A DNA stretch of 32,000 nucleotides from Methanothermobacter marburgensis str. Marburg. Lineage in GTDB: Archaea > Methanobacteriota > Methanobacteria > Methanobacteriales > Methanothermobacteraceae. Position 1 is the stretch's first letter. Each line of letters opens with the position of its first letter. Positions 1,563-32,000 of the stretch are shown here, piece after piece. The DNA is taken from contig NC_014408.1 in assembly GCF_000145295.1 (NCBI RefSeq), forward strand, positions 1,320,001 through 1,352,000, written 5' to 3'. A model generated the notes under the pieces. The model saw only the letters and a list, made by a program, of their open reading frames with translations. It had not been told where the DNA came from and did not search any database. The position numbers and the translations under genes were made by a program.

Positions 1563-4500
1563 TTGAGAGGAATTTTAAAGAAAATTTCCCGGATAAATTT
1601 TGGTCTCATGTCCCCTGAGGATATAAGGAAGATGTCCGTTACCCAGGTGGTGACACCGGACACCTATGATGAGGACGGGTACCCCATCGAGAACGGGCTC
1701 ATGGACCCGAGGCTTGGTGTCATAGACCCGAGCCTCAGGTGCAGGACATGCGGGGCCAAGGGCGGTGAGTGCCCCGGACACTTTGGAAGCATAAACCTTG
1801 CAAGACCCGTTATACACGTGGGATTCGCGGATACAATACACAAGATCCTCAGGTCAATCTGCTGGAAATGCGGCAGGGTCCTGCTCACAGAGGTGGAGAT
1901 TGAAGAGTACAGACAGCGGATACTCGAGGCGATGGAGAAGGAGGAGAGCCTCACACCCATAATAAAGGAGATATACGCAGAGGCCAGACGTGAGGAGTGC
2001 CCCCATTGTGAAGAGGAACAAGGCGATATAAAACTCGATAAACCAGTCTCCATTGTTGAAAATGACTATAAACTTAAAAGCGGAGACATAAAAAAACTGC
2101 TAGAAGAAATAAACAAAAAGCAAATCGGCAAAGCAAAAGAACTCCTAGAAAAAGAAGAATATAACCTAACAAAACAAGAAATCGAAAAAATACTAAAAAA
2201 AATAGAAGAATCAGCAAAATGCTACTGTATAAAACTAGACCAAGAATATTATTGCCTAACAAAACAAGAAATCGAAAAAATACTAGAACTAGACCAAGAT
2301 TCTATCAATAACATCATAAACATCCTCAACAAATTATCCGCCAAAAAAACCAAAGAACTCCTAGAAAAAATAAACAAAACAGATACCCTCAAAGTAAAAG
2401 AAATAATGGAAAAATATAACCTAACAAAACAAGAAATCGAAAAAATACTAGAACTAGACCAAGATTCTATCAATAACATCATAAACATCCTCAACAAATT
2501 CGGCGAAAAAACCAAAGAACTCCTAGAAAAAATAAAAGAAATAATGGAAAAATATAACCTAACAAAAGCAGAAATCGAAAAAATACTAAAAAAAATAGAA
2601 GAATTAGCAAAATGCTACTGTATAAAATTCCCTGACAAAAACGACAAAAATTTAATTGATAATATCAGGAATCTCCTTAATAAAAAAGAGAAATTGTCCA
2701 TCGAAAAAACCAAAGACCTCGTGGGAAAAATAGAGAATATTTTGCGGAGTGTAATGGTTCCAGAAGTAAGGGAACTAGTTGAAAACAAATGTGACCTAAC
2801 TCAAAAAGAAATCGACAAAATACTGGAAAAAATAGAAGAGTACACCAAAACCTCCGACAAATTCTGCCGTATTAATATAAGAGATGTTAGAAGGGTTCTT
2901 GACAGAATAGATTACAAGCTAACACCCAGCGAGGTGAGGGACAGGCTTGAGAGGATAACCGACGACGACGCCCTCATCCTTGGAGTCAACCCTGAGGTTG
3001 CAAGGCCCGAATGGATGGTCCTCACAGTCCTGCCTGTTCCCCCGGTAACTGTACGGCCATCGATAACACTTGAAACCGGTGAAAGATCAGAGGACGACCT
3101 GACCCACAAACTCGTGGACATCCTCAGGATAAACCAGCGCCTCAAGGAGAACATGGAGGCAGGGGCCCCCCAGCTAATCGTAGAGGACCTCTGGGAACTC
3201 CTCCAGTACCACGTGACAACCTACTTCGACAACGAGGCCTCAGGTGTCCCACCTGCAAGACACCGCTCCGGTAGACCCCTTAAGACACTTGCCCAGAGGC
3301 TCAAGGGTAAGGAGGGGCGGTTCAGGAGCAACCTCTCAGGTAAGAGGGTTAACTTCTCTGCCCGTACCGTCATCTCACCGGACCCCAACATAAGCATAAA
3401 CGAGGTGGGAGTCCCTGAGATCATAGCCAGGGAGGTCACAGTACCAGTCTACGTTGCAGAATGGAACATAGACCGCATGAGGGAGTACATAGAAAATGGG
3501 CCCGACGTACACCCAGGAGCCAACTACGTCATAAGGCCAGACGGCCGCAAGATAAGGATCTACAATGAGACCAAGGATGTTGTCCTTGAGAACCTGAAAC
3601 CAGGCTACATCGTTGAAAGGCACCTCAAGGATGGTGACATAGTCCTGTTCAACCGTCAGCCATCACTCCACAGGATGTCCATGATGGCCCATGAGGTCCG
3701 CGTCCTCCCCTACAAGACCTTCCGTCTGAACCTCTGCGTCTGCCCCCCATACAACGCGGACTTCGACGGGGACGAGATGAACATGCACGTATTCCAGACC
3801 GAGGAGTCAAGGGCGGAGGCCAAGACACTCATGCGTGTGCAGGAACACATACTCTCCCCAAGGTTCGGGGGTCCCATCATCGGCGGGATACACGACCACA
3901 TATCAGGTGCCTATCTCCTTACAAGGAAGAGGGCTGTGTTCAGTGAGGATAAGGTGTTCCAGATCCTCAAGAAGGCGGGGCTGCCTCTACCTGACAGGAG
4001 GGGTCGTGACTGGACAGGTAAGGAGATATTCAGCATGGTCCTCCCTGATGACCTCAACATGGTATACCGGGCCGAGATATGCAGGAAATGTGAGGAATGC
4101 CTTGAGATGGACTGTGAAAACGATGCCTATGTGGTCATAGAGAACGGGGAGCTCATATCAGGCGTTATTGATGAGAAGGCCTACGGTGCATTCGCCGGTA
4201 AGATACTTGACCACATCGTCAAGGAATACGGTACCGATGCTGCCAGAAAATTCCTTGACTCCGCAACAAAACTTGCCATTGCAGGTATAATGCATGCGGG
4301 TTTCACCACAAGTACCAACGATGAGGAAATCCCTGAGGAGGCCCGTGAAAGGATAGAGGCCCACCTGCGGAACGCTGAGGCCCGGGTTGACCAGCTGATT
4401 GAGGCCTACGAGAACGGAGAACTCGAACCACTCCCTGGTAGAAGCCTTGAGGAGACCCTCGAGATGAAGATAATGCAGGTTCTGGGTGAGGCCAGGGACA

Positions 4501-5021
4501 AATCAGGGGAGATAGCAGAGAGTTACTTTGACATGGATGAAAACCACGCAGTAATAATGGCACTCACAGGTGCAAGGGGGTCAATGCTCAACCTCACACA
4601 GATAACAGCCTGTGTGGGGCAGCAGTCAGTCAGGGGTGGACGAATAAGCAGGGGATACGATAACAGGACACTTCCCCACTTCAAGAGGGGTGAACTCGGT
4701 GCCAAGTCCCGCGGATTCGTACACTCAAGTTACAAGGAGGGCCTCGACCCCATAGAATTCTTCTTCCACGCCATGGGGGGAAGAGAGGGGCTTGTGGATA
4801 CAGCTATACGTACAGCCCAGAGCGGTTACATGCAGAGGCGTCTTGTCAACGCCCTCCAGGACCTCACAGTCAACGAGGACGGAAAGGTCGTTGACAACAG
4901 GGGAGTTATAATACAGACAAGATTCGGTGAGGACGGCGTTGACCCTGCCAAGAGCGACTACGGAAAGATCGTGGACCTCGATAAACTCGTAGAGGAAATA
5001 AGGCTCAAATCAAAGGGGTAA
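1563..5021 (+). CDS. rpoA1: DNA-directed RNA polymerase subunit A' (Rpo1N), 1152 aa, carrying a 282-codon insertion
   Basis: TTG start preceded by AAAGGAGAG. Zinc site CRTCGAKGGECPGHFG, second Cys pair set CWKCG...CPHCEEE, catalytic NADFDGDEMN, and RPEWMVLTVLPVPP are all present. Gene order is rpoB'-rpoA'-rpoA''. Confidence 0.95.
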   Translation: MRGILKKISRINFGLMSPEDIRKMSVTQVVTPDTYDEDGYPIENGLMDPRLGVIDPSLRCRTCGAKGGECPGHFGSINLARPVIHVGFADTIHKILRSICWKCGRVLLTEVEIEEYRQRILEAMEKEESLTPIIKEIYAEARREECPHCEEEQGDIKLDKPVSIVENDYKLKSGDIKKLLEEINKKQIGKAKELLEKEEYNLTKQEIEKILKKIEESAKCYCIKLDQEYYCLTKQEIEKILELDQDSINNIINILNKLSAKKTKELLEKINKTDTLKVKEIMEKYNLTKQEIEKILELDQDSINNIINILNKFGEKTKELLEKIKEIMEKYNLTKAEIEKILKKIEELAKCYCIKFPDKNDKNLIDNIRNLLNKKEKLSIEKTKDLVGKIENILRSVMVPEVRELVENKCDLTQKEIDKILEKIEEYTKTSDKFCRINIRDVRRVLDRIDYKLTPSEVRDRLERITDDDALILGVNPEVARPEWMVLTVLPVPPVTVRPSITLETGERSEDDLTHKLVDILRINQRLKENMEAGAPQLIVEDLWELLQYHVTTYFDNEASGVPPARHRSGRPLKTLAQRLKGKEGRFRSNLSGKRVNFSARTVISPDPNISINEVGVPEIIAREVTVPVYVAEWNIDRMREYIENGPDVHPGANYVIRPDGRKIRIYNETKDVVLENLKPGYIVERHLKDGDIVLFNRQPSLHRMSMMAHEVRVLPYKTFRLNLCVCPPYNADFDGDEMNMHVFQTEESRAEAKTLMRVQEHILSPRFGGPIIGGIHDHISGAYLLTRKRAVFSEDKVFQILKKAGLPLPDRRGRDWTGKEIFSMVLPDDLNMVYRAEICRKCEECLEMDCENDAYVVIENGELISGVIDEKAYGAFAGKILDHIVKEYGTDAARKFLDSATKLAIAGIMHAGFTTSTNDEEIPEEARERIEAHLRNAEARVDQLIEAYENGELEPLPGRSLEETLEMKIMQVLGEARDKSGEIAESYFDMDENHAVIMALTGARGSMLNLTQITACVGQQSVRGGRISRGYDNRTLPHFKRGELGAKSRGFVHSSYKEGLDPIEFFFHAMGGREGLVDTAIRTAQSGYMQRRLVNALQDLTVNEDGKVVDNRGVIIQTRFGEDGVDPAKSDYGKIVDLDKLVEEIRLKSKG
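2163..2234 (+). repeat. Intragenic direct repeat X, copy 1 (NLTKQEIEKILKKIEESAKCYCIK)
   Basis: Matches 2556-2627 at 69 of 72 nt by eye. The offset is 393 nt (131 codons). Confidence 0.9.
2255..2335 (+). repeat. Intragenic direct repeat Y, copy 1 (LTKQEIEKILELDQDSINNIINILNK)
   Basis: 81 nt identical base for base to 2420-2500. The offset is 165 nt (55 codons). Confidence 0.95.
2420..2500 (+). repeat. Intragenic direct repeat Y, copy 2
   Basis: Perfect copy of 2255-2335. Similarity continues with a one-codon indel to 2536 (ACCAAAGAACTCCTAGAAAAAATAAA at 2349-2374 and 2511-2536). Confidence 0.95.
2556..2627 (+). repeat. Intragenic direct repeat X, copy 2 (NLTKAEIEKILKKIEELAKCYCIK)
   Basis: 69/72 nt match to 2163-2234. 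Confidence 0.9.
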
Positions 5022-22123: not shown

Positions 22124-25100
22124 TTATTTTCTCCTGGATATCGCTGAACCTGCTGCCACAAGAAGCATTCCTGCAACAAGTGCAGTTAAAGGTGCTCCTG
22201 TTGGCTTCATTGGTACAGGTCTAGGTCCCGGTGATGGTCCCGGTGATGGTCCTGGACCTGGTGATGGCTCAACATCGATCTCAACGTCCGTGGTGTTGTT
22301 ACCCCCACTTGAACCTGAGCTCACGGTTGCAACGTTGACGAATGTGCCGCGCCTTATGAGCTGAACCACGATGTCGAGGACTGCACTTGAACCTGCTGGG
22401 AGGTCTCCCACCATCCAGACACCAGTTGCAGGGTTGTATGACCCCATGGTGGCGTTGGAGGATATGTACCTCATGGCATCTGGCAGCCTGTCGGTAACCA
22501 TTGTGTTGAGTGCTGTGTCGGGTCCATTGTTGGTTACCGTTATGGTGAACCTTACGTTCTGACCCACACGCACAGCCCTTCTATCCACTGTCTTGTTAAT
22601 GGTGAGCTCTGCCCTTGGGTTAACTGTTACAGTGGCATTGGCGCTTGTATCCGGATTCGGGTTGTAGGTATCCGCCGTCACATCCGCAATGTTAACCAGA
22701 GTAGTGTTACTAACAGCAACCCTCGCAACAATCTCAAGCGTTGCAACAGCATCCTTAACCACTGAACCCACCATCCAGGCACCAGTCACACTGTCATAAG
22801 TACCCTGACTAGCAACATGGCTCAGATACACAAGACCAGCCGGAAGCAGATCCGTGACAACAACACCAGCCGCAGTATCAGGACCATCATTCCTCACTGA
22901 AACCGTAAACCTCACAGTATCAGTGAAGTTAGCAACAGTCGCATTGACCACCTTATCAATCACCAGATAAGCAGCCGCAGGTACCCTAACCGTAACCTCA
23001 GCAGTATTGTTCTCAGGGTAAGGATCAAACTCTTCACCCACAGCAAGAACCCTGTTTACAACATCACCAGTCCTATTCACAAGAACAGTGAAGTTCAGAG
23101 TCGCTGATGAACCAGGAGCAAGATCCCCAACTATCCATATGCATGCAAGTGGATAGCATACTCCCTGTGATATCGCATGAGACACATAGACAAGTCCTGC
23201 AGGCAGGCTCTCTGTTAAAGTGATTCCTGTTGCATTATCAGGTCCATTGTTCATAACAGTCACATAGAAGGTTATCAGATCACCGAAGTTCGGTGTACTG
23301 TTACTAACCGTCTTAGTGACTGCAACATCCGCAGCCGGGTCAACGGTGAGTACCGCTGTTGCATTGTTGTTTGAAATATCTGGATCGTACTGGTCGTCTG
23401 CTGATGCATTCACATAGTTGGTGAAGATACCAGCAGCATTTGCAAGTACCTCAAGTACTAGGGTTGCTGATGACCCATTGGCGAGGTTGCCCACTGTCCA
23501 TACACCGCCAGCGAAGGTTCCCTGTGATGCTTCTGAACTCACAATTGTGAGTGCTGCCGGTAATATATCGGTTACTGTAACACCTGTTGCATCGTTTGGT
23601 CCGTTATTTGTAACGGTAACAGTGAAGTTGGTGCTCTGTCCATTTTTGATGGGTGTTAAAAGGACCGTCTTCTGAACCGCGATGTCTGCAAGTGGACGTC
23701 CGTTAATTACAGCTGCTGCGTAGTTGTTGGTCATGTCAGGGTCATATTCGGTTGCTGTTACTGAGACGGTGTTTATGAGTTCACCTGTTGCGTCAACAAG
23801 GGCCGTCAGGTTGAGTGTCTCTGAGGCACCAGGTGCAAGTGAATCAACAGTCCATACATAGAACTCTGGGAAGTAGACCCCCGCAGATGCCACATGGGAC
23901 TGGTAGATAAGGCCTGCTGGCAGTCCGTCAACTGTCCTCACAACTGTGGCAGTGTCAGGTCCAAGGTTCGTTACCGTGATGTAGAACACGACGGTTTCAC
24001 CGAAGTCCGGTGCGGTGTTGCTCACGGTCTTGGTGATCTTAACATCTGCTGATGGTCTCACATCGACTGTAACGGCATCAACGTTGTCCTGTGGCATTGG
24101 GTCGGGCAGTTCTGATGATACATTGACTATGTTTGTCTGGAATCCTGCCTGGGTTGCCCTCACAAAGAGTGTGAGTGTTGCCTGGAATAGGGCTGGAAGT
24201 GATCCCACATTCCATGTGCGGGTTGCCTCACTGAAGGTTCCCTGGGTAACCGTGTATGATATGATGGATAAACCTGCCGGGAGAAGATCCGTTACAACCA
24301 CATTTGATGGCGTATCAGGTCCGGCGTTCCTCACGGTTACTGTGAAGGTTGCTGTTTCCCCGTTGTTTATAACGGGTCTGTCAACGGTCTTCTGGATGCT
24401 GAGATCGGCTGATACCGCATTAAGGACTGATATGGCATCATTGTTGGTCCTGTCCGGGTCGTATTCATTACCGGTCACTAATACCGTGTTATTTGAATCT
24501 CCCGTGGTGTTAACAAGGACCGTGAGGTTCATCAGAGCTGATGCGGCATAGTTCAGTGTTCCTATGGTCCATACCCCTGTTAATGGGTCGTATGAACCCT
24601 GTGTAACCGTGTGGGTGAGGTAGACGAGTCCCGGTGACAGTATATCAGTCACATTGACTCCCGTAGCCGTGCTTGGACCCAGATTTGTAACTGCAACTGT
24701 GAAAGTCACATTGGATCCGAAGTTGGGCCTCGGGTTATTCACGTTCTTTATGATGCGGAGATCCGCCACAGGAATTCCGCAGACATCCCGTGTTACGTTG
24801 TTGTTATCAAGGTTCGGGTCAAAGTTCGGTGATGTTACATTTGCAAAGTTTGTTAAGATGCCAGTAGCGTTGACCTTCGCGAGTATGGTGAGTGTTGCCA
24901 CCTCAAGGTAGTTGAGTGTCCCCACGTACCATGTTCCCATGGTATAGATGCCCTTGGATGGTGTTGCACTGACCAGTATGAGACCAGCAGGTAGAATATC
25001 CTCCACCACAACTCCCGGTGCATTATCAGGACCCCTGTTGCTCACTGTGATCGTGTACTGGATTGTCTCACCCACGTAGGGTTCAGGATTGCTCACGGAC

Positions 25101-26566
25101 TTGTCTATGGTGAGGTCTGATGCTGGTGGAGAATTCAGTGTTACTGATGCATAGTTGTTTGCCATGTTGGGATCAAACACATCACCTGTCACATTGGCAT
25201 TGTTAACTATGATTCCCGTTGCTTCAACCATGGCTGTGATGTTAAGTGTCACCGTTTCAAAGTAGTTGAGGTTTCCTATGGTCCATATGCCCGTGTTATT
25301 ATTGTAGGTACCCTTGGATGCAGTCGCTGATACAAACTGGAGCCCTGCTGGAAGTTTGTCAATCACATAAACCCCTGTACCGTTGTTGGGTCCATAATTT
25401 ACAACCGTCAAGGTGAAAGTAACCGTGTCCCCAATATTGGGTGTTGCATTGTCAACAGTCTTTGCTATGGCAAGGTCTGCCTTCTCAACAGCCTTTATGG
25501 TTATGTTCTCACCAAAGTCTGAGTTGTAGTGGTAACTTGAACCGCTCCTGTCTGTTATAAGACCAAAGAGGCTTGTTACGCCAGCACCGGTCACGTTGAA
25601 GAGCCAGACTGATACAAAGTTCGTCTGCCCTGGTGAGTCAAGGCGTACATTGTTGCTGGTGTTGGACCCATATGTTACTGTTACATTCAGCGGCTGAAGA
25701 ATAGCCGGGTTGTAGTTTGTAAGTGGAAGGTTAACAACATCATAGGTGGCTGAAGCCGTCGTTGATACAACGGTGACAGCAATCACATCCCCTATGGCTG
25801 GTGTGGGATTGCTCACGGTTATAGAGACCACATCGTTACGGTTCTGTGATACAAGTTTCTCCACGTATAGTGTACCATTTATGGTATCTGCTGATCCAGT
25901 GTTGGTGCCACCAACCATTACTGTGTAGTTTCTTGATGTTAGATACGCAAGGGTATTTCTTGAAACCTCCACAAGATAGAAGACGTCCACAGTGACCCCT
26001 GGAGGTATGTCCCCAAGATATTTGTTTGGGGTTTCATTTGCAGCCAGATAAATGTATGGATTTATTGAAGTGAAGGTTAAATTTGCTGTTACATTGTTTG
26101 CAGTTGTTAGGGCATTGTTCTTAACCCTGATCTGGATCAGGTACTGGTTTGGCCCAACATTCACATTGTTATTGTCAAGTCCAAGGGTATCCCATGAACC
26201 CTTGGTCAGCTGCAGTGTACCGAGTTTGAAGTCAGCTGTGGCCCTACCTGATTCATCAAGGGTCACGGTCTTTGATGGTATCACATGCCCGGGAGCAACC
26301 GCTGATACCACAAATGTCCTATCAGGTGACTGAAGACTGACAGAGTATCTTCCATCAGGACCTGTTACACCTGAAGCAAGATTGGAACCGTTCATGGACG
26401 CCACATTTATAACTGCGCCCTCAAATGGTTCTGTACTGTTACAGTATGTTACCGTACCAGTGATAACTGAATCCGAGTCGGTCTGGTTGTCAGTGTCTGC
26501 AGCGCTTGCAGTTCCAACTGCAACCATTAGAAGAAGAAGCGCTAGTGTCAGTGTAAATTTTCTCAT
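22124..26566 (-). CDS. Large secreted surface (adhesin-like) protein: signal peptide, CarboxypepD_reg-like domain, nine DUF11 repeats, Pro-rich linker, C-terminal TM anchor
   Basis: N-terminus MRKFTLTLALLLLMVAVGTASA. GTVTYCNSTEPFEGAVINV...GPDGRYSV resembles the carboxypeptidase-regulatory fold. Nine repeats of about 119 aa follow the pattern ADLxIxKTVxNxxPNxGDxVTFTxTVxNxGPxxATGVxVTDxLPAGLxxVS. The protein ends PSPGPGPSPGPSPGPRPVPMKPTGAPLTALVAGMLLVAAGSAISRRK. Confidence 0.85.
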   Translation of the reverse strand: MRKFTLTLALLLLMVAVGTASAADTDNQTDSDSVITGTVTYCNSTEPFEGAVINVASMNGSNLASGVTGPDGRYSVSLQSPDRTFVVSAVAPGHVIPSKTVTLDESGRATADFKLGTLQLTKGSWDTLGLDNNNVNVGPNQYLIQIRVKNNALTTANNVTANLTFTSINPYIYLAANETPNKYLGDIPPGVTVDVFYLVEVSRNTLAYLTSRNYTVMVGGTNTGSADTINGTLYVEKLVSQNRNDVVSITVSNPTPAIGDVIAVTVVSTTASATYDVVNLPLTNYNPAILQPLNVTVTYGSNTSNNVRLDSPGQTNFVSVWLFNVTGAGVTSLFGLITDRSGSSYHYNSDFGENITIKAVEKADLAIAKTVDNATPNIGDTVTFTLTVVNYGPNNGTGVYVIDKLPAGLQFVSATASKGTYNNNTGIWTIGNLNYFETVTLNITAMVEATGIIVNNANVTGDVFDPNMANNYASVTLNSPPASDLTIDKSVSNPEPYVGETIQYTITVSNRGPDNAPGVVVEDILPAGLILVSATPSKGIYTMGTWYVGTLNYLEVATLTILAKVNATGILTNFANVTSPNFDPNLDNNNVTRDVCGIPVADLRIIKNVNNPRPNFGSNVTFTVAVTNLGPSTATGVNVTDILSPGLVYLTHTVTQGSYDPLTGVWTIGTLNYAASALMNLTVLVNTTGDSNNTVLVTGNEYDPDRTNNDAISVLNAVSADLSIQKTVDRPVINNGETATFTVTVRNAGPDTPSNVVVTDLLPAGLSIISYTVTQGTFSEATRTWNVGSLPALFQATLTLFVRATQAGFQTNIVNVSSELPDPMPQDNVDAVTVDVRPSADVKITKTVSNTAPDFGETVVFYITVTNLGPDTATVVRTVDGLPAGLIYQSHVASAGVYFPEFYVWTVDSLAPGASETLNLTALVDATGELINTVSVTATEYDPDMTNNYAAAVINGRPLADIAVQKTVLLTPIKNGQSTNFTVTVTNNGPNDATGVTVTDILPAALTIVSSEASQGTFAGGVWTVGNLANGSSATLVLEVLANAAGIFTNYVNASADDQYDPDISNNNATAVLTVDPAADVAVTKTVSNSTPNFGDLITFYVTVMNNGPDNATGITLTESLPAGLVYVSHAISQGVCYPLACIWIVGDLAPGSSATLNFTVLVNRTGDVVNRVLAVGEEFDPYPENNTAEVTVRVPAAAYLVIDKVVNATVANFTDTVRFTVSVRNDGPDTAAGVVVTDLLPAGLVYLSHVASQGTYDSVTGAWMVGSVVKDAVATLEIVARVAVSNTTLVNIADVTADTYNPNPDTSANATVTVNPRAELTINKTVDRRAVRVGQNVRFTITVTNNGPDTALNTMVTDRLPDAMRYISSNATMGSYNPATGVWMVGDLPAGSSAVLDIVVQLIRRGTFVNVATVSSGSSGGNNTTDVEIDVEPSPGPGPSPGPSPGPRPVPMKPTGAPLTALVAGMLLVAAGSAISRRK
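22268..25480 (-). repeat. Nine tandem DUF11-type coding repeats (about 357 nt each, diverged)
   Basis: Protein-level periodicity counted by eye (residues about 363-1433). The copies are not identical at the nucleotide level. Confidence 0.8.
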
Positions 26567-27845: not shown

Positions 27846-28094
27846 GCCCTCATTTTTTATTCGTTATAGCTATATATTACGAATTTAAATATGTTATAAT
27901 CCTAAGGACCGAAGCATTGGAACATTCCCCCCTACAATTACTATATTGTTGACTCCAGATCAGAAGAAATCTAGTAAATTTTCGAAAAATGCCACTGATG
28001 GGTGATCGGTAATGATCAAAGAAAGTTTCAATCCATTCACCGCGTTCTATAAGGTTAAAAAATATGAAAAAATATGTAATCGGGTGAGTACAGG

Positions 28095-28967
28095 TCAAAC
28101 AACAGCTATGGGGATAATTTGTATAGCTGGTGGTTCAACCTTTGTAAAGATTGGAGGTATCTTAAATTCTTTCTTCATATCCTTTAAAGGATCTTCTAAG
28201 GAAGTAATCATTTCTTCACTCAACCCCACCGCTGTACCTTCTAATAAATCTATATATTCATCATCTTCTAGTTTTCTAACCACTTTTCCTAAAATTTTAA
28301 ATTCTCCATAAGCTAGCTCAACACCAGCGAGATCTCTTATAAACTCATGAAAAAGATAGGTAACGATTTTATGATCTTTTAAGTCCCTTAACTCAATTAC
28401 ATACTTCTGAAAATTATCTTCAGATAAACCCTTTAATGCCATCTAATATTTCTTTTAGATATTAATTTCTTCCTCATCATTGTTATTGTTGGGGTGTGGC
28501 ATTAAACCTTTTTCAGTGAAACAAATTAACAAGTCAAAAAGATTATCAAGTCTTACTAAGGAGTTCACAATAGGGTTAGGGACGAAGTTTCCCCGCGATT
28601 CTATAAAATCAGACACAGTAATATCATTCCAAGAATCCTCATCTTCGACTTTTTTAATTAAACCTTTTTCATTAAGATTTTTATTAAACGGTTCATTAAA
28701 GAACCATAAGTATGAAATCTTTCTTCTTCCCTCTCTTCTGCAGAATCTGCACTTGATTCTTTTTATCCAGAGCCTTTAAAGCCTATTTAACAAACTATAA
28801 ACGTTTATTCCAAAGCTAGTATCTCCTGAAATCTTATTAGCATTCGATTGATTTTCTTTTGTTGTTATTTTACTTGCGGTGCTAAACCCGTCTTCCATTG
28901 AAGCAAGCAGATCTAATAATGCATTTGTATCTAAATAGATAGGTATTCCTAAATGAGCGTCGCCCAT
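28095..28967 (-). pseudogene. 291-codon reading frame of unknown function interrupted by three in-frame stops (track ORFs 28776..28967 and 28095..28442 plus the unlisted middle segment 28458..28775)
   Basis: 28967-28442 = 525 nt, so both listed ORFs share one frame. My hand translation of the 111 codons between them gives only TAA (28776-28778), TAA (28455-28457) and TAG (28443-28445) as stops, with no frameshift. The middle segment RLWIKRIKCRFCRREG...NEPFNKNLNEKGLIKKVEDEDSWNDITVSDFIESRGNFVPNPIVNSLVRLDNLFDLL... has no start codon of its own near its 5' end. Confidence 0.55.
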
Positions 28968-29185
28968 AATCCCTCATTTAATTGATTCTGCCTCCCGATT
29001 GGGCCTTGTCATTATAGAATTGTAATACTTACTATAAAACTATTGATGCATTTATAAAAGGCACTGGTGACCTTAAATGACTAAGAAATTAATTAACCAT
29101 GAAGCCTTCAAATAAGAGCTATCATTATCTAACATGTGACACCGCATAACATTACTAGACAACATGTCTTCCGCAGTCAGAGCCA

Positions 29186-32000
29186 TCACGGTTTTCCTTT
29201 GATTTCCCTGTAAACACTTTCAAAAAGAGCTTCCTCAAGCGATTCCCTAATTTTCTCGTCGTCCATAACTTTCTTGAACAAGTCAGTATTTTTTTCTAGC
29301 ATCTCAAGCATTGCATCCTTAAAGTGATCTCCAAAGATTGCCTTCACATTTTCAGGAGGATTTTTTTCAATCTTTTCAACAAGTTCATCATTGGATTTGA
29401 GCTTGTTTTTAACTTGTGAAATATATACCATCTCATCCTCACTAAAATTAGTGCCATATGTCTCGTTAATTTCGGCTATGATCTGTGACAACCGCTCCTT
29501 GACATCTTCAGTAAAATTGCCTGCACTCTCTGAAATTGGGGGGATTAGACCTCCCCCTTTGAGTCTTATATCAACCACACCCTTTTCCTCTATTTTATAG
29601 GACTCTATATCCACATCTTCAAGTATGCTAAAGGGTAGTGGGTTGTTGATAGTTGGTAATTTTTTGTTAAGGAACTTGTTGAATATATAAAGCTTCTCAA
29701 GGTCAACATCACTGAAGGGTATGAGTTGTGACAGGTATGAATAAATATTCTGGTACCTTCGGAGGGCCTTTTTGAATTTAACCTGCTCTTCAACTGAAAG
29801 TTTAGTGAATAGGTTCCTGATAGGATATAATATGCTGTGAAGAACCGGTTGTGGATCTCCATTCTTATAGGCCATCACAAATTTATCAACAACAAACCTA
29901 TCAAATATGCCAAAGTCAAAAAGAACATCCGCAAGTTCGTAGAGTTTATGAGGGTCTGTACCCTCCTCAAGACATGTGGTCTCATAGTAGGGTTCAAAAG
30001 CTTTCTGTATTGTTTCCGGTTTGTTTGCAAAATCAAGTATGAATGTATCGTTTTTGTTTTTCATGATCCGGTTGACCCTGTTAAGTGTCTGAACTGCTGC
30101 GATACCATTAAGCGGCTTATCAACATACATGGTATGTAATAATGGCTGATCAAATCCAGTTTGGTACTTATTTGCAACAATCAATATTCTGTATGGATCC
30201 TCCTCAAAAGCATTCTCTATTGATTTAGATGGAGGGATATCGTTCATTGACGTCTCAGTATACTCCTCACCATCATGCTTGACCGTGCCTGTAAAAGCAA
30301 CAAGCGTTTTTATAGGGTAATTCATCTCCCTGATGTATTTATCAAATGTTTTCTTGTACTGCACTGCGTGTAGGCGGGATCTTGTTACAACCATTGCCCT
30401 TGCTCTGCCACCAATCTTGTGGATAGTAGAGTTCATGAAATGATCCGCCATTATCTCCGTTTTTTTCCTTATTGAATGGGGGTGTTCCTCAACGAACTTA
30501 CGTAATACTCTTTTAGCCTTCTTTTCTTCAAATTCTGGATCTTCTTCCACCGTCTTAATCAAATTGAAATATGTCTTATATGAAATGTAATTTCTGAGAA
30601 CATCAAGAATGAAACCTTCTTTGATAGCTTGTTTCATTGAGTAAACATGAAATGGACGGTATTCCCCATACTCATTTCTTGTCCCAAACATTTCAAGTGT
30701 TTTGTTTTTTGGTGTGGCTGTAAATGCAAAGAAGCTCACATTTTTAAGATCTCTAAAAGATTCTATTTCATGGAGTAGTTCCATTTGAACGTCATTACTT
30801 ACATCGTCAATTAAAGCCGCTTCTTCAAGGCTTTTAACACTTAATACCTGCTTCATCTTCCTGGCAAGAGAACCCGACTGGCTTGAATGTGCCTCATCTA
30901 TTATAACTGCATACTTTCTCTTTGGGAGATCTCTTACTTCCTCCATTACAAAGGGAAACTTCTGTAGAGTCGTCACTACAATGTTACTTCCCGTTTTGAG
31001 GGCCTCGGCAAGCTGATGGGAATCCCTATCAATTTTTTCAACTATCCCAATCCGCCTCTCAATTGCCTTTATCTGGTCTTGTAACTGGCGATCTATAACC
31101 CTCCTGTCTGAAACAACAATTACCATGTCATATATTCTCTTGTCAAATGAGTCAAACTTGTTTAGTAATCCATGTGCCAACCATGATATTGTCTTGGTTT
31201 TGCCACTTCCAGGACTGTGCTGTATAAGGTAATTTTGACCCGGCACTGATTCGTCAAGTAATCTGTCAACACATTCCAACTGGTGATACCTTGGAAATAT
31301 TACTGTCTCATTACCCGTCCTCACATTTTTTTCCACGAAGATGAAATTGTTAATAAGTCTTGAGAGCTTGTTGACCTGTAAGATGTCATTATAAAGGTAA
31401 CTCGTTTTGTAATCATTTTTCAGGGGCGGGTTTTCGAGACCCTTGTTAAAGGGCAGGAAGCGGGTATGCTCTCCTTCAAGTTTTGTTGTCATATATATTT
31501 TCTCATCACTCATGGCAAAGTGCACAAGGCATCGCTGGAATAATTTTTCATTTGGGTCCCTATCTTTCCTGTACTGATCCATCGCTTTTTCAACACCTTG
31601 AGTGAACGTATTTTTAAGTTCTATGGTGAGTATAGGTAGCCCGTTGATAAAAATTACAATGTCAAGGCGATCTTTTTTTCTCTCATGATATTGAAGTTCG
31701 TCAATAACTGAAAATATATTACTCTCAAATTTCATGAAAAGGTCGGGGTTACGGTTATTATTGGGCTTGGGGTAGAATAGTTTAAAATGGGCACCCGCCT
31801 CGTGAAATCCATTTCTGAGGAGATAGATAGTTCCTTTTCTTTCGAGTTCGGAAATGAGCCTATGGAAGAATTTCTTTGTTGCGTCTTCCCCATAAACTCT
31901 TTGCAATTGCTCCCACTGTTCCAATTGGGTCTCCATTATGAATTGTAGGGTAATTTCAGGGTCAATACAAGCTGTTTTATCATAGTTATGACTTTTTCTG
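29186..32000 (-). CDS. hsdR: Type I restriction endonuclease subunit R (HsdR), N-terminus outside window
   Basis: PD-(D/E)xK nuclease motif DIVIFINGLPILTIELK. Helicase motifs QHSPGSGKTKT (I), VIIDEAHSSQ (II, DEAH), FTATP (III) and QTGFDQPLL (VI). The frame stays open upstream of the first in-window ATG (31936) to base 32000 (...RKSHNYDKTACIDPEITLQFI-METQ). Confidence 0.9.
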   Translation of the reverse strand, partial: RKSHNYDKTACIDPEITLQFIMETQLEQWEQLQRVYGEDATKKFFHRLISELERKGTIYLLRNGFHEAGAHFKLFYPKPNNNRNPDLFMKFESNIFSVIDELQYHERKKDRLDIVIFINGLPILTIELKNTFTQGVEKAMDQYRKDRDPNEKLFQRCLVHFAMSDEKIYMTTKLEGEHTRFLPFNKGLENPPLKNDYKTSYLYNDILQVNKLSRLINNFIFVEKNVRTGNETVIFPRYHQLECVDRLLDESVPGQNYLIQHSPGSGKTKTISWLAHGLLNKFDSFDKRIYDMVIVVSDRRVIDRQLQDQIKAIERRIGIVEKIDRDSHQLAEALKTGSNIVVTTLQKFPFVMEEVRDLPKRKYAVIIDEAHSSQSGSLARKMKQVLSVKSLEEAALIDDVSNDVQMELLHEIESFRDLKNVSFFAFTATPKNKTLEMFGTRNEYGEYRPFHVYSMKQAIKEGFILDVLRNYISYKTYFNLIKTVEEDPEFEEKKAKRVLRKFVEEHPHSIRKKTEIMADHFMNSTIHKIGGRARAMVVTRSRLHAVQYKKTFDKYIREMNYPIKTLVAFTGTVKHDGEEYTETSMNDIPPSKSIENAFEEDPYRILIVANKYQTGFDQPLLHTMYVDKPLNGIAAVQTLNRVNRIMKNKNDTFILDFANKPETIQKAFEPYYETTCLEEGTDPHKLYELADVLFDFGIFDRFVVDKFVMAYKNGDPQPVLHSILYPIRNLFTKLSVEEQVKFKKALRRYQNIYSYLSQLIPFSDVDLEKLYIFNKFLNKKLPTINNPLPFSILEDVDIESYKIEEKGVVDIRLKGGGLIPPISESAGNFTEDVKERLSQIIAEINETYGTNFSEDEMVYISQVKNKLKSNDELVEKIEKNPPENVKAIFGDHFKDAMLEMLEKNTDLFKKVMDDEKIRESLEEALFESVYREIKGKP

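Follow-up and report, generated by a model that had tools for sequence, protein, structure and literature searches.

Why does RNA polymerase subunit A' of Methanothermobacter marburgensis str. Marburg carry nearly 300 residues that are missing in close relatives, and how did they come to be there? The question concerns a 32,000-nucleotide stretch of the genome (contig NC_014408.1, positions 1,320,001 to 1,352,000 of the forward strand), referred to here as the window, whose numbering is used throughout. The rpoA'/rpo1N gene (1563..5021, + strand, TTG start) was recognized as an open reading frame and by its matches to Pfam, TIGR02390, and ADL59020.1; it encodes a protein of 1152 aa. On the basis of the G+C profile, alignment, and structure prediction, it contains an A-rich insertion of 282 codons (2064..2909, +; A' residues 168-449) that is rich in Lys, Glu, Ile, Leu, and Asn and predicted to be mostly α-helical. 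The reading that we favor, with a probability of roughly 0.6, is that this insert is a translated, lineage-specific expansion segment that originated by helix duplication, was imported, has grown recently, moves by recombination, and is dispensable.

The window protein is an exact match to ADL59020.1/WP_013296232.1 of M. marburgensis str. Marburg and scores 1488.7 bits against the TIGR02390 rpoA1 equivalog model (cut-off 1042.55), which identifies it as A'; the alignment to that model omits residues ∼168-337 or further. Rpb1 domains 1-5 of Pfam each exceed their cut-offs, and the catalytic motif NADFDGDEMN is intact (sequence ...PPYNADFDGDEMNMH). The gene lies in an operon with the order rpoB-rpoA'-rpoA''-L30e-nusA-S12-S7, in which the neighboring A'', L30e, NusA, and S7 products were identified. 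The second Cys4 zinc site of A' comprises C100, C103, C146, and C149, and the insert is located 18 residues past its CPHC half, in a loop of what we take to be the clamp head by homology to Rpb1; the placement behind this zinc site given in the original prediction, which was made from the sequence alone, is thus upheld. The nearest solved structure, Thermococcus kodakarensis Rpo1N (4QIW), aligns to residue ∼164 and resumes at 178, and a structure homologue search returned no PDB chain covering the Marburg insert. The loop at the insertion site has ∼13 residues in T. kodakarensis compared to ∼5 in Methanobacteriales. Directly downstream of the insert is the native clamp-head helix (DYKLTPSEV..., 2910..2957, +), which is written in host-type codons and which, by codon comparison and local alignment, appears to be the template of the insert units.

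The tract differs sharply in composition from the gene that surrounds it. The G+C content falls from ∼0.55 to 0.25-0.33 across nt 2000-2900, and the 846 nt of the insert comprise 52% A, 16% C, 13% G, and 18% T (29% G+C). Lysine is encoded by AAA and AAG in a ratio of 53:1 within the insert versus 12:33 elsewhere in the gene, and the corresponding ratios are 37:3 versus 23:62 for GAA:GAG (Glu) and 8:0 versus 1:19 for CAA:CAG (Gln). The reading frame is free of stops throughout, mononucleotide shuffling of the 846 nt gave no open frame in 20,000 trials, and the remaining five frames hold 5-37 stops, in agreement with the earlier description of an in-frame, stop-free, low-GC insertion. The frame stays open because a frameshift or stop would destroy the ∼700 essential residues downstream. 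As had also been noted, the codons for DYKL differ between the two ends of the insert; those of the right-hand copy (GAT TAC AAG CTA ACA) are the native ones of insert-free genes. The tract of foreign composition may start ∼45 nt farther upstream, near nt 2019 (CAA GGC GAT ... GAA AAT). The last 15 core codons before the insert (2019..2063, +; QGDIKLDKPVSIVEN) are shifted to A/T-ending codons, with a G+C content at third codon positions (GC3) of 0.27 versus 0.53-0.87 further upstream, and they contain the states CAA, Gly-Asp, CCA, and GAA that resemble those of M. tenebrarum and its relatives (the tenebrarum clade), whereas host-type codons are found past nt 2912; this codon-by-codon comparison is suggestive only. 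The sense strand of the insert has 22 runs of 5-8 A residues, whereas runs of T never reach 5 nt, an asymmetry that would avoid archaeal oligo-T terminators in an essential operon. The A8 runs at 2195 and 2588 are frameshift-prone homopolymers within an essential gene.

Alignment with the 870-aa A' proteins of M. thermautotrophicus DeltaH and M. wolfeii revealed one gap of exactly 282 residues, situated between ...KPVSIVE(N/G) and DYKLTPSEV. The result agrees with the expectation of a single gap of about 280 residues and with the length of ∼870 aa originally calculated for an A' from which 2064-2909 is deleted. The interval that contains the insertion site spans 39-44 residues in 78 of 80 other archaeal A' loci and 321 residues in the window.

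The insert is present in the purified enzyme. In the part of Kaster et al. (2011; PMC3087415) that relays the results of Brandis, Thauer & Stetter (1981), one phenotypic difference listed is the size of an RNA polymerase subunit, 120 kDa for Marburg against 96 kDa for DeltaH; the A' masses calculated from the sequences are 131.7 kDa and 98.1 kDa, respectively. Because the Marburg subunit is the larger one in this account, the insert stays in the mature enzyme, where it would form a solvent-exposed helical appendage that is dispensable for core polymerase function. The relayed subunit sizes and the maintained frame support the earlier claim that the insert is translated. The accompanying statement that no insertion had been described at this position needs amendment, given the larger Marburg subunit that this account dates to 1981; we found no paper linking that subunit size to the sequence. 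Structure prediction with AlphaFold2 yielded a mean predicted local distance difference test score (pLDDT) of 41.7 for residues 1-620 with a 30-sequence alignment, and of 54.9 for the insert as a single sequence, which was modeled mainly as helices and reached 73-85 locally over the repeat array. Since these predictions are of low confidence, the surface exposure of the insert, suggested by sequence, rests on homology to solved polymerases.

The internal structure of the insert points to its origin. Five copies of an 81-nt unit encoding (Y/C)xLT(K/Q)(Q/A/K)EI(E/D)KIL... were found on the + strand, and an exact 30-mer is common to three of them; the repeat motif was not found elsewhere in the 32-kb window. 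Copy 1 (EEYNLTKQEIEKILKKIEESAKCYCIK, 2154..2234) and copy 4 (2547..2627) are 95% identical and belong to repeat family D1, copies 2 (YYCLTKQEIEKILELDQDSINNIINILNKL..., 2244..2346) and 3 (2409..2511) belong to families D1 and D4 and share 91% identity over 103 nt, and copy 5 (2784..2864) is degenerate. Similarities among units were assessed by scoring local alignments against composition-preserving shuffles (n = 2000). The first insert unit (DYKLKSGDIKKLLEEI, 2064..2111, +) is a diverged copy of the native helix, with an alignment score of 37; that score for the native helix versus the first 16 aa of the Marburg insert was reached by 13 of 2000 shuffles, whereas for the equivalent unit of a relative with a 943-aa A' it was reached by none. 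We conclude from alignments to the native helix and to the inserts of relatives described below that the Marburg insert is composite. Part B (2688..2909, +; KLSIEKTKDLVG...VRRVLDRI), which includes copy 5, is an ancestral module of ∼74 aa. Part A (2064..2687, +; insert aa 1-208, G+C 0.25-0.30), distinguished by its repeat families and by the divergence between Marburg and strain DP, is a later, recent repeat expansion that opens with the DYKL unit. Growth to 282 aa probably occurred by recent internal duplication of a helix-turn-helix (HTH)-like unit of 45-55 aa. The insert contains 62 Lys plus Arg versus 57 Asp plus Glu and has a calculated pI of 8.6. Two KCYCIK motifs (2220-2228 and 2613-2621; insert aa 53/55 and 184/186), the second of which lies in copy 4, are kept in strain DP and missing from the tenebrarum-clade inserts; that the four cysteines of these two repeats could form a metal site is pure speculation.

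Inserts at precisely the same point were identified in two groups of relatives. Two uncultured Methanothermobacter lineages (P0062 and P0063, hereafter the 943-aa lineage) have an additional 75 aa in which the native helix recurs in tandem as three diverged copies (DYKLAIDEIEEMLERI / YKLTSPEVKELMER / YRLTTTETNKIIEKL), followed by a closing helix ...EIRKLLDKI and then the native DYKLTPSEV. M. tenebrarum, strain MT-2, and relatives (P0066/P0067/P0069/P0070) have an additional 182 aa. The alignment scores of the native helix versus the 75-aa insert, of the 75-aa insert, over its full length, versus the C-terminal 74 aa of its Marburg counterpart (score 105), and of the tenebrarum insert versus the N-terminal part of the Marburg insert were not reached by any of the 2000 shuffles. 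When a hidden Markov model (HMM) was built for the native helix, it detected the copies of the 943-aa lineage (0/1000 shuffles) and of M. tenebrarum (5/1000) but not, directly, the Marburg repeats (171/1000). Because this narrow HMM misses the Marburg repeats, the link of the Marburg insert to the native helix rests on the intermediate sequences. The tenebrarum-clade inserts resemble that of Marburg in their insertion point, in their homologous first and last segments, and in their apparent derivation from the DYKLTPSEV helix; they differ in being shorter, in lacking the YNLTKQEIEKIL array and the Cys motifs, in having host composition, and in being under purifying selection. These relationships suggest that the neighboring clamp-head helix was duplicated in tandem in the M. 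tenebrarum lineage, which has a lower G+C content, and that a module of ∼75 aa originated in this way. The original description of the insert holds, but it had overlooked the internal repeats, the origin from the neighboring helix, and the related and unrelated inserts of relatives.

Unrelated inserts occupy the same loop or the adjacent zinc ribbon in several Methanobrevibacter lineages and in other Methanobacteriales (L001 and L012/13/17). Because such inserts recur there, the tip of the clamp head is, as judged by sequence comparison, an insertion hotspot in Methanobacteriales A'. A 100-aa insert at the same site in Methanobrevibacter (L053/57/58; YELTNTQLNNIFKSI) was considered as a possible relative of the Marburg insert, but its alignment score was reached by 464 of 2000 shuffles and we take it as independent. 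Several independent insertions of 21-260 aa are found in Methanobrevibacter metagenome-assembled genomes (MAGs; L002, L044, L045, L053, L057, L058, L047, and L051), located before, inside, and after the clamp-head zinc ribbon. In the Methanobacteriota MAG USDE_maxbin.135 (L001, 2001-5324), a different insertion of 239 aa lies in the zinc ribbon directly after CPHC and is discordant with its host (third-position A of.45 versus.20), while the related inserts of 96-109 aa in L012, L013, and L017 have a composition that matches their hosts.

The codon usage of the Marburg insert provides evidence on where it came from. The GC3 in Marburg is 0.31 in the insert versus 0.64 in the rest of the gene, whereas in M. 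tenebrarum it is 0.41 versus 0.42. Third positions of the Marburg insert (A.56, C.25, G.06, T.13) are close to those of the 943-aa lineage insert (A.55, C.24, G.12, T.09), and the preference for A over G combined with C over T at these positions is a general codon habit of the tenebrarum clade. When the synonymous choices of the insert were scored by the codon usage of candidate hosts, the values were -1.27 bits per codon for the 943-aa lineage, -1.37 for tenebrarum, and -1.85, the worst, for the genes of Marburg itself, a gap that is overstated owing to the non-independence of the repeat copies. The composition of clamp-head inserts is that of the host in nearly all other lineages examined, and A-richness is therefore not intrinsic to inserts at this position. 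The tenebrarum-type usage would be explained if homologous recombination, acting through the conserved flanks of rpoA', had brought the module-carrying allele into the M. marburgensis lineage. We infer, with respect to both direction and donor, that an insert-bearing allele was imported in this way from a lower-GC relative and then expanded. Of the two origins proposed earlier, import from a low-GC donor is better supported by the codon usage, and compositional expansion in place is less favored. The insert alone had no match in searches of 5.8 billion proteins (word-indexed) and 1.84 billion representatives (exhaustive phmmer), a negative that is partly uninformative because the insert-bearing proteins sit in a 90% cluster with an insert-free representative; exact and back-translated scans for the repeat pattern in JGI metagenomes and IMG/VR likewise returned nothing.

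Strains related to Marburg provide direct evidence for movement of the segment. Strains THM-2 and DP carry the insert (their A' proteins, annotated as 1137 and 1153 aa, fall in the same 90% protein cluster), and the THM-2 operon gene is identical to that of Marburg at 3459 of 3459 nt. Strain KEPCO-1, with an average nucleotide identity of 96.98% to Marburg and, like DP, a PacBio assembly, has an operon A' gene (CP042937.1, L087 2379-4991) that encodes an insert-free protein of 870 aa and is ∼6% diverged from the Marburg gene. A second, stand-alone A' gene in KEPCO-1 (CP042937.1, L086 4001-7459) contains the insert, with 0 of 846 nt differing from Marburg; the two loci are near 1.187 Mb and 1.72 Mb of the KEPCO-1 sequence. 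Marburg-type single-nucleotide polymorphisms (SNPs) in this paralogue run to ∼nt 2985, and the tract has a sharp left boundary at nt 2060-2063. The KEPCO-1 operon gene possesses SNPs that are otherwise specific to the THM-2 paralogue (at positions equivalent to 1863, 1970, 2045, 2953, and 2981 of the window). Because the operon gene carries paralogue SNPs and the paralogue carries the Marburg-type tract, the exchange was reciprocal; it was patchy and spanned roughly the equivalent of nt 1863-2985. The segment has been transferred by homologous recombination through its conserved flanks, and such movement among A' genes and strains may be continuing by gene conversion. Since the KEPCO-1 operon A' is insert-free, the operon-encoded enzyme can do without the insert, which is presumably not essential for polymerase function.

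The stand-alone A' gene was found in THM-2, DP, KEPCO-1, K4, and a draft 'M. marburgensis' genome and encodes 868-873 aa (1152 in KEPCO-1). The loci in THM-2 (L081 8001-10613), DP (L091 3001-5607), and KEPCO-1 are outside the polymerase operon and are flanked by a DUF169 gene and a gene for a surface protein of ∼2500-2950 aa. The first 1.1-1.3 kb of the paralogue is 89-97% identical in DNA to the operon gene, consistent with a homogenized 5' third. Residues 381-800 share ∼65% identity with any A', being about equally distant from all A' proteins, and have a GC3 of 0.46; a role of the paralogue as the carrier that introduced the insert is therefore conjectural. The paralogue keeps NADFDGDEMN and evolves under purifying selection, with a ratio of nonsynonymous to synonymous substitution rates (omega, dN/dS) of 0.13-0.15 between THM-2 and DP. 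The type-strain ADL accession is in none of the eight members of the paralogue cluster, and no description of a stand-alone A' paralogue was found in the searchable literature. The earlier caveat, that an intact second rpoA' might accompany a silent insert-bearing copy, is thus half realized: an intact second A' exists in THM-2, DP, KEPCO-1, and K4, but there is no sign that the insert-bearing copy is silent. One A' has the insert and the other does not in all three strains for which both genes were read (THM-2, DP, and KEPCO-1). It is conceivable, though quite improbable in our estimation, that the two A' subunits, from the operon and the paralogue and with and without the appendage, are maintained to provide two polymerase variants for which the insert is a swappable, selected determinant. 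If so, the polymerases assembled in these strains could differ in properties related to factors, promoters, or viral defense, and if the paralogue is assembled into an enzyme, it would be a rare archaeal case of alternative catalytic subunits. Annotations at these loci differ: GenBank QEF95440.1 (P0180, the KEPCO-1 paralogue) starts at an internal Met in the insert and is given as 873 aa (MEKYNLTKQEIEKIL...), RefSeq gives the same protein its full 1152 aa, and the THM-2 RefSeq operon protein starts 15 residues late (1137 aa).

Substitution patterns differ between the parts of the insert. For Marburg versus DP, the core of the gene is strongly constrained (dN 0.006, dS 0.226, omega 0.027), the whole insert is not (dN 0.063, dS 0.058, omega 1.1), and the two parts gave values of dN 0.082, dS 0.053, and omega ∼1.5 for part A and dN 0.012, dS 0.070, and omega ∼0.17 for part B, the latter based on 5 changes only. 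The 39 nonsynonymous and 6 synonymous changes in part A do not differ significantly from the neutral expectation of ∼36.5:8.5. Parallel substitutions were observed across the repeats (three of Q to A, which is reversed in the fourth copy, and two each of D to N and E to K); because the same substitutions recur in different copies, gene conversion among the repeats is indicated. All indels between strains are multiples of 3. The repeat array is thus free to vary in sequence and not in frame, as would be expected of an insertion that lies upstream of 700 essential residues. In the tenebrarum clade, the insert gave dN 0.169, dS 0.889, and omega 0.19 between two M. tenebrarum genomes, whose core gave dN 0.021, dS 0.946, and omega 0.023, and dN 0.057, dS 0.221, and omega 0.26 between two 943-aa lineages. 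Because insert dS is close to core dS in the tenebrarum pair, the module of this clade is probably inherited vertically, and it is moderately constrained. The original view of the whole insert as a selected extra module does not fit a part A with omega ≥1 against a core of 0.027, or an insert that is missing in sister species and in the KEPCO-1 operon; constraint is indicated for the 74 aa of part B and for the tenebrarum-clade inserts (omega ∼0.2), not for the 208-aa repeat part.

Several observations weigh against an expansion segment that was imported and is merely tolerated. The insert region is younger than its flanks, both in KEPCO-1 versus Marburg (0 of 930 nt versus ∼6%) and in Marburg versus DP, where insert dS is fourfold below that of the flanks (0.058 versus 0.226), which is unexpected for a vertically co-inherited neutral segment; this youth could mean that the insert is favored by selection, beyond mere tolerance. 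Retention in several tenebrarum-clade species at omega ∼0.2 argues that the ancestral module has some function or is required to fold. Database searches returned no donor whose insert is closely similar, a weak negative since only cluster representatives are covered, the upstream QGD signature is imperfectly linked to the insert (the K4 paralogue has QGD and no insert), and the structure predictions that bear on a helical appendage are of low confidence (pLDDT 41.7 and 54.9). These points give some weight to the view that the insert is an adaptive surface module under positive or diversifying selection, which serves as a docking site for a host factor, binds DNA by way of its HTH-like units, or protects the clamp against polymerase inhibitors encoded by viruses or the host, and which spreads through the M. 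marburgensis complex because it is advantageous. Besides the youth of the insert in two comparisons and the constraint on the ancestral module and tenebrarum-clade inserts, this view can call on the omega of ∼1.5 in part A with its many K/E charge swaps and on the pattern of one A' with and one without the insert in THM-2, DP, and KEPCO-1, which persists even after the KEPCO-1 swap. The candidate DNA-binding segment, LTKQEIEKILELDQDSINNIINIL, had HTH-like matches to Pfam Mor (22.6 bits, cut-off 24.9) and MarR_2 (19.8 bits, cut-off 27) and a weak match to PHROG 1373, 'transcriptional regulator' (E = 3.4e-5), and was modeled by AlphaFold2 as two helices, of 8 and 13 residues, joined by a turn of 3 residues, with pLDDT 73-85. 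Published work on this location is in its favor as well: the clamp head and the clamp coiled-coil have the wing of TFE-α between them (PMC7704642), and a viral inhibitor touches the clamp head (PMC8448823). On the other hand, the ratio in part A is inflated by changes copied between repeats and is not significant, the family matches are all below curated cut-offs (no Pfam, NCBIfam, PHROG, or PADLOC family was above threshold on the insert), Foldseek with the insert model returned nothing below E = 1 (best PDB match E = 1.4), the sister species and the KEPCO-1 operon gene are without the insert, and no partner protein or phenotype is known. We regard an adaptive role for the insert as possible but rather unlikely; the earlier inference of a selected module is weakly supported by these results, and the adaptive interpretation is kept open by the youth of the insert and by the one-with, one-without pattern.

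An origin in place would dispense with import altogether. Here, the insert would be ancestral to Methanothermobacter or born in the M. marburgensis lineage, with A-richness resulting from relaxed constraint, under which the sequence drifts toward a local mutational equilibrium, and from amplification of an A-rich unit; recombination between the flanking DYKL repeats would have removed it in M. thermautotrophicus and M. wolfeii. We consider this account improbable. The shared site and homologous ends of the Marburg and tenebrarum-clade inserts agree with such a history, flanking direct repeats would ease precise loss, the newest duplicated part is also the most A-rich and has omega ∼1, and the absence of T-runs ≥5 alongside 22 A-runs would be consistent with selection against oligo-T terminators. 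However, the shift to A-ending codons extends to the non-repeated part B and to the 15 upstream core codons, hotspot inserts of nearly all other lineages have host composition, the approximately fourfold deficit in synonymous divergence of the insert is unlike vertical neutral evolution, and KEPCO-1 shows movement by recombination. Even less credible, to the point that we give it almost no weight, is a segment that is removed before the enzyme is formed (an intein or archaeal intron), a transposable element, or an assembly chimera, which has in its support only the break in composition and the short direct repeat of DYKL at both ends. Inteins begin with Cys, Ser, or Thr and end with His-Asn followed by Cys, Ser, or Thr, whereas the insert starts with Asp and ends with Arg-Ile followed by Asp, and there was no Pfam match to Hint, intein, or homing-endonuclease (LAGLIDADG) domains at E up to 1. 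An archaeal (bulge-helix-bulge, BHB) intron or structured RNA is disfavored by the lack of any Rfam match at E up to 1, by the indels in multiples of 3, and by the open frame, since an excised segment would not need 282 A-rich codons to remain open. A transposon or miniature inverted-repeat transposable element (MITE) was rejected on finding no inverted repeat pairs in 1900-3100, no transposase, and no further copies in the 32-kb window or the viral and metagenome collections, together with a DYKL repeat that exists at the protein level with different codons. An assembly artefact, a concern raised at the outset, is countered by the presence of the same insert in four independent assemblies, two of them confirmed as PacBio, and by the protein size reported in 1981.

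The imported and recently grown expansion segment that we favor can be compared to other polymerase insertions. At the equivalent position of yeast Rpb1, a loop of about a dozen residues runs from the strand ...LKLVGSW to the helix ...LSTEEILNIFKHI; this loop is longer, variable, and largely disordered in eukaryotes, and in Marburg it is 282 residues of repeats. Low-complexity inserts rich in AT codons occur in conserved proteins, including RNA polymerase subunits, of Plasmodium and other organisms with AT-rich genomes. Like the Marburg insert, they are surface loops rich in Lys, Asn, Glu, and Ile that change rapidly through slippage and duplication and whose frames remain open only because the protein that hosts them is essential; they match the bias of their hosts, whereas the Marburg insert is discordant with a host of 49-54% G+C and has a constrained module. 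The insertions of bacterial RNA polymerase β/β' subunits (SI1-SI3, BEAN/HABAS/SBHM; PMC11515920) are likewise large, in-frame, located on the surface, lineage-patchy, and tolerated by the core. These bacterial domains are ancient, clade-defining, beta-rich and globular, and track the tree of life (PMC11515920), whereas the Marburg insert is archaeal, predicted to be all-alpha, built from a duplicated native helix, polymorphic within a species, and exchanged by recombination. The 2024 survey of insertional domains contains zero mentions of Methanobacteriales or of the clamp (PMC11515920). With no Pfam or NCBIfam domain above cut-off and near-wholly helical models of low confidence, the insert does not belong to the BEAN/HABAS/SBHM families; in being in-frame, situated in a surface loop, repetitive, fast-evolving, and missing in close relatives, it fits the description of a repeat-derived lineage-specific expansion segment.

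M. marburgensis is one of two workhorses of methanogenesis biochemistry, and its oversized polymerase subunit has been known since 1981; the insert supplies an explanation at the sequence level, and we found no earlier one. It is also an example of an insertion in an archaeal RNA polymerase clamp that is unusually young and dynamic, and it represents a natural experiment in the tolerance of extra mass by the clamp head near the region that binds TFE and Spt4/5. Strains differ by 33.5 kDa at this site, which is relevant to modeling, purifying, and engineering Methanothermobacter RNA polymerase.

Two other regions of the window may be mentioned. Low G+C (0.33-0.40) was also observed at 28000-32000, where the R subunit of a type I restriction enzyme (29189-31936, - strand) and a DUF6414 protein (28098-28442, -) are encoded; this region is probably a horizontally acquired defence island and, because the codon signatures differ, does not come from the donor of the insert. 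A 1480-aa protein with nine DUF11 repeats (22127-26566, -) is presumably a surface protein.

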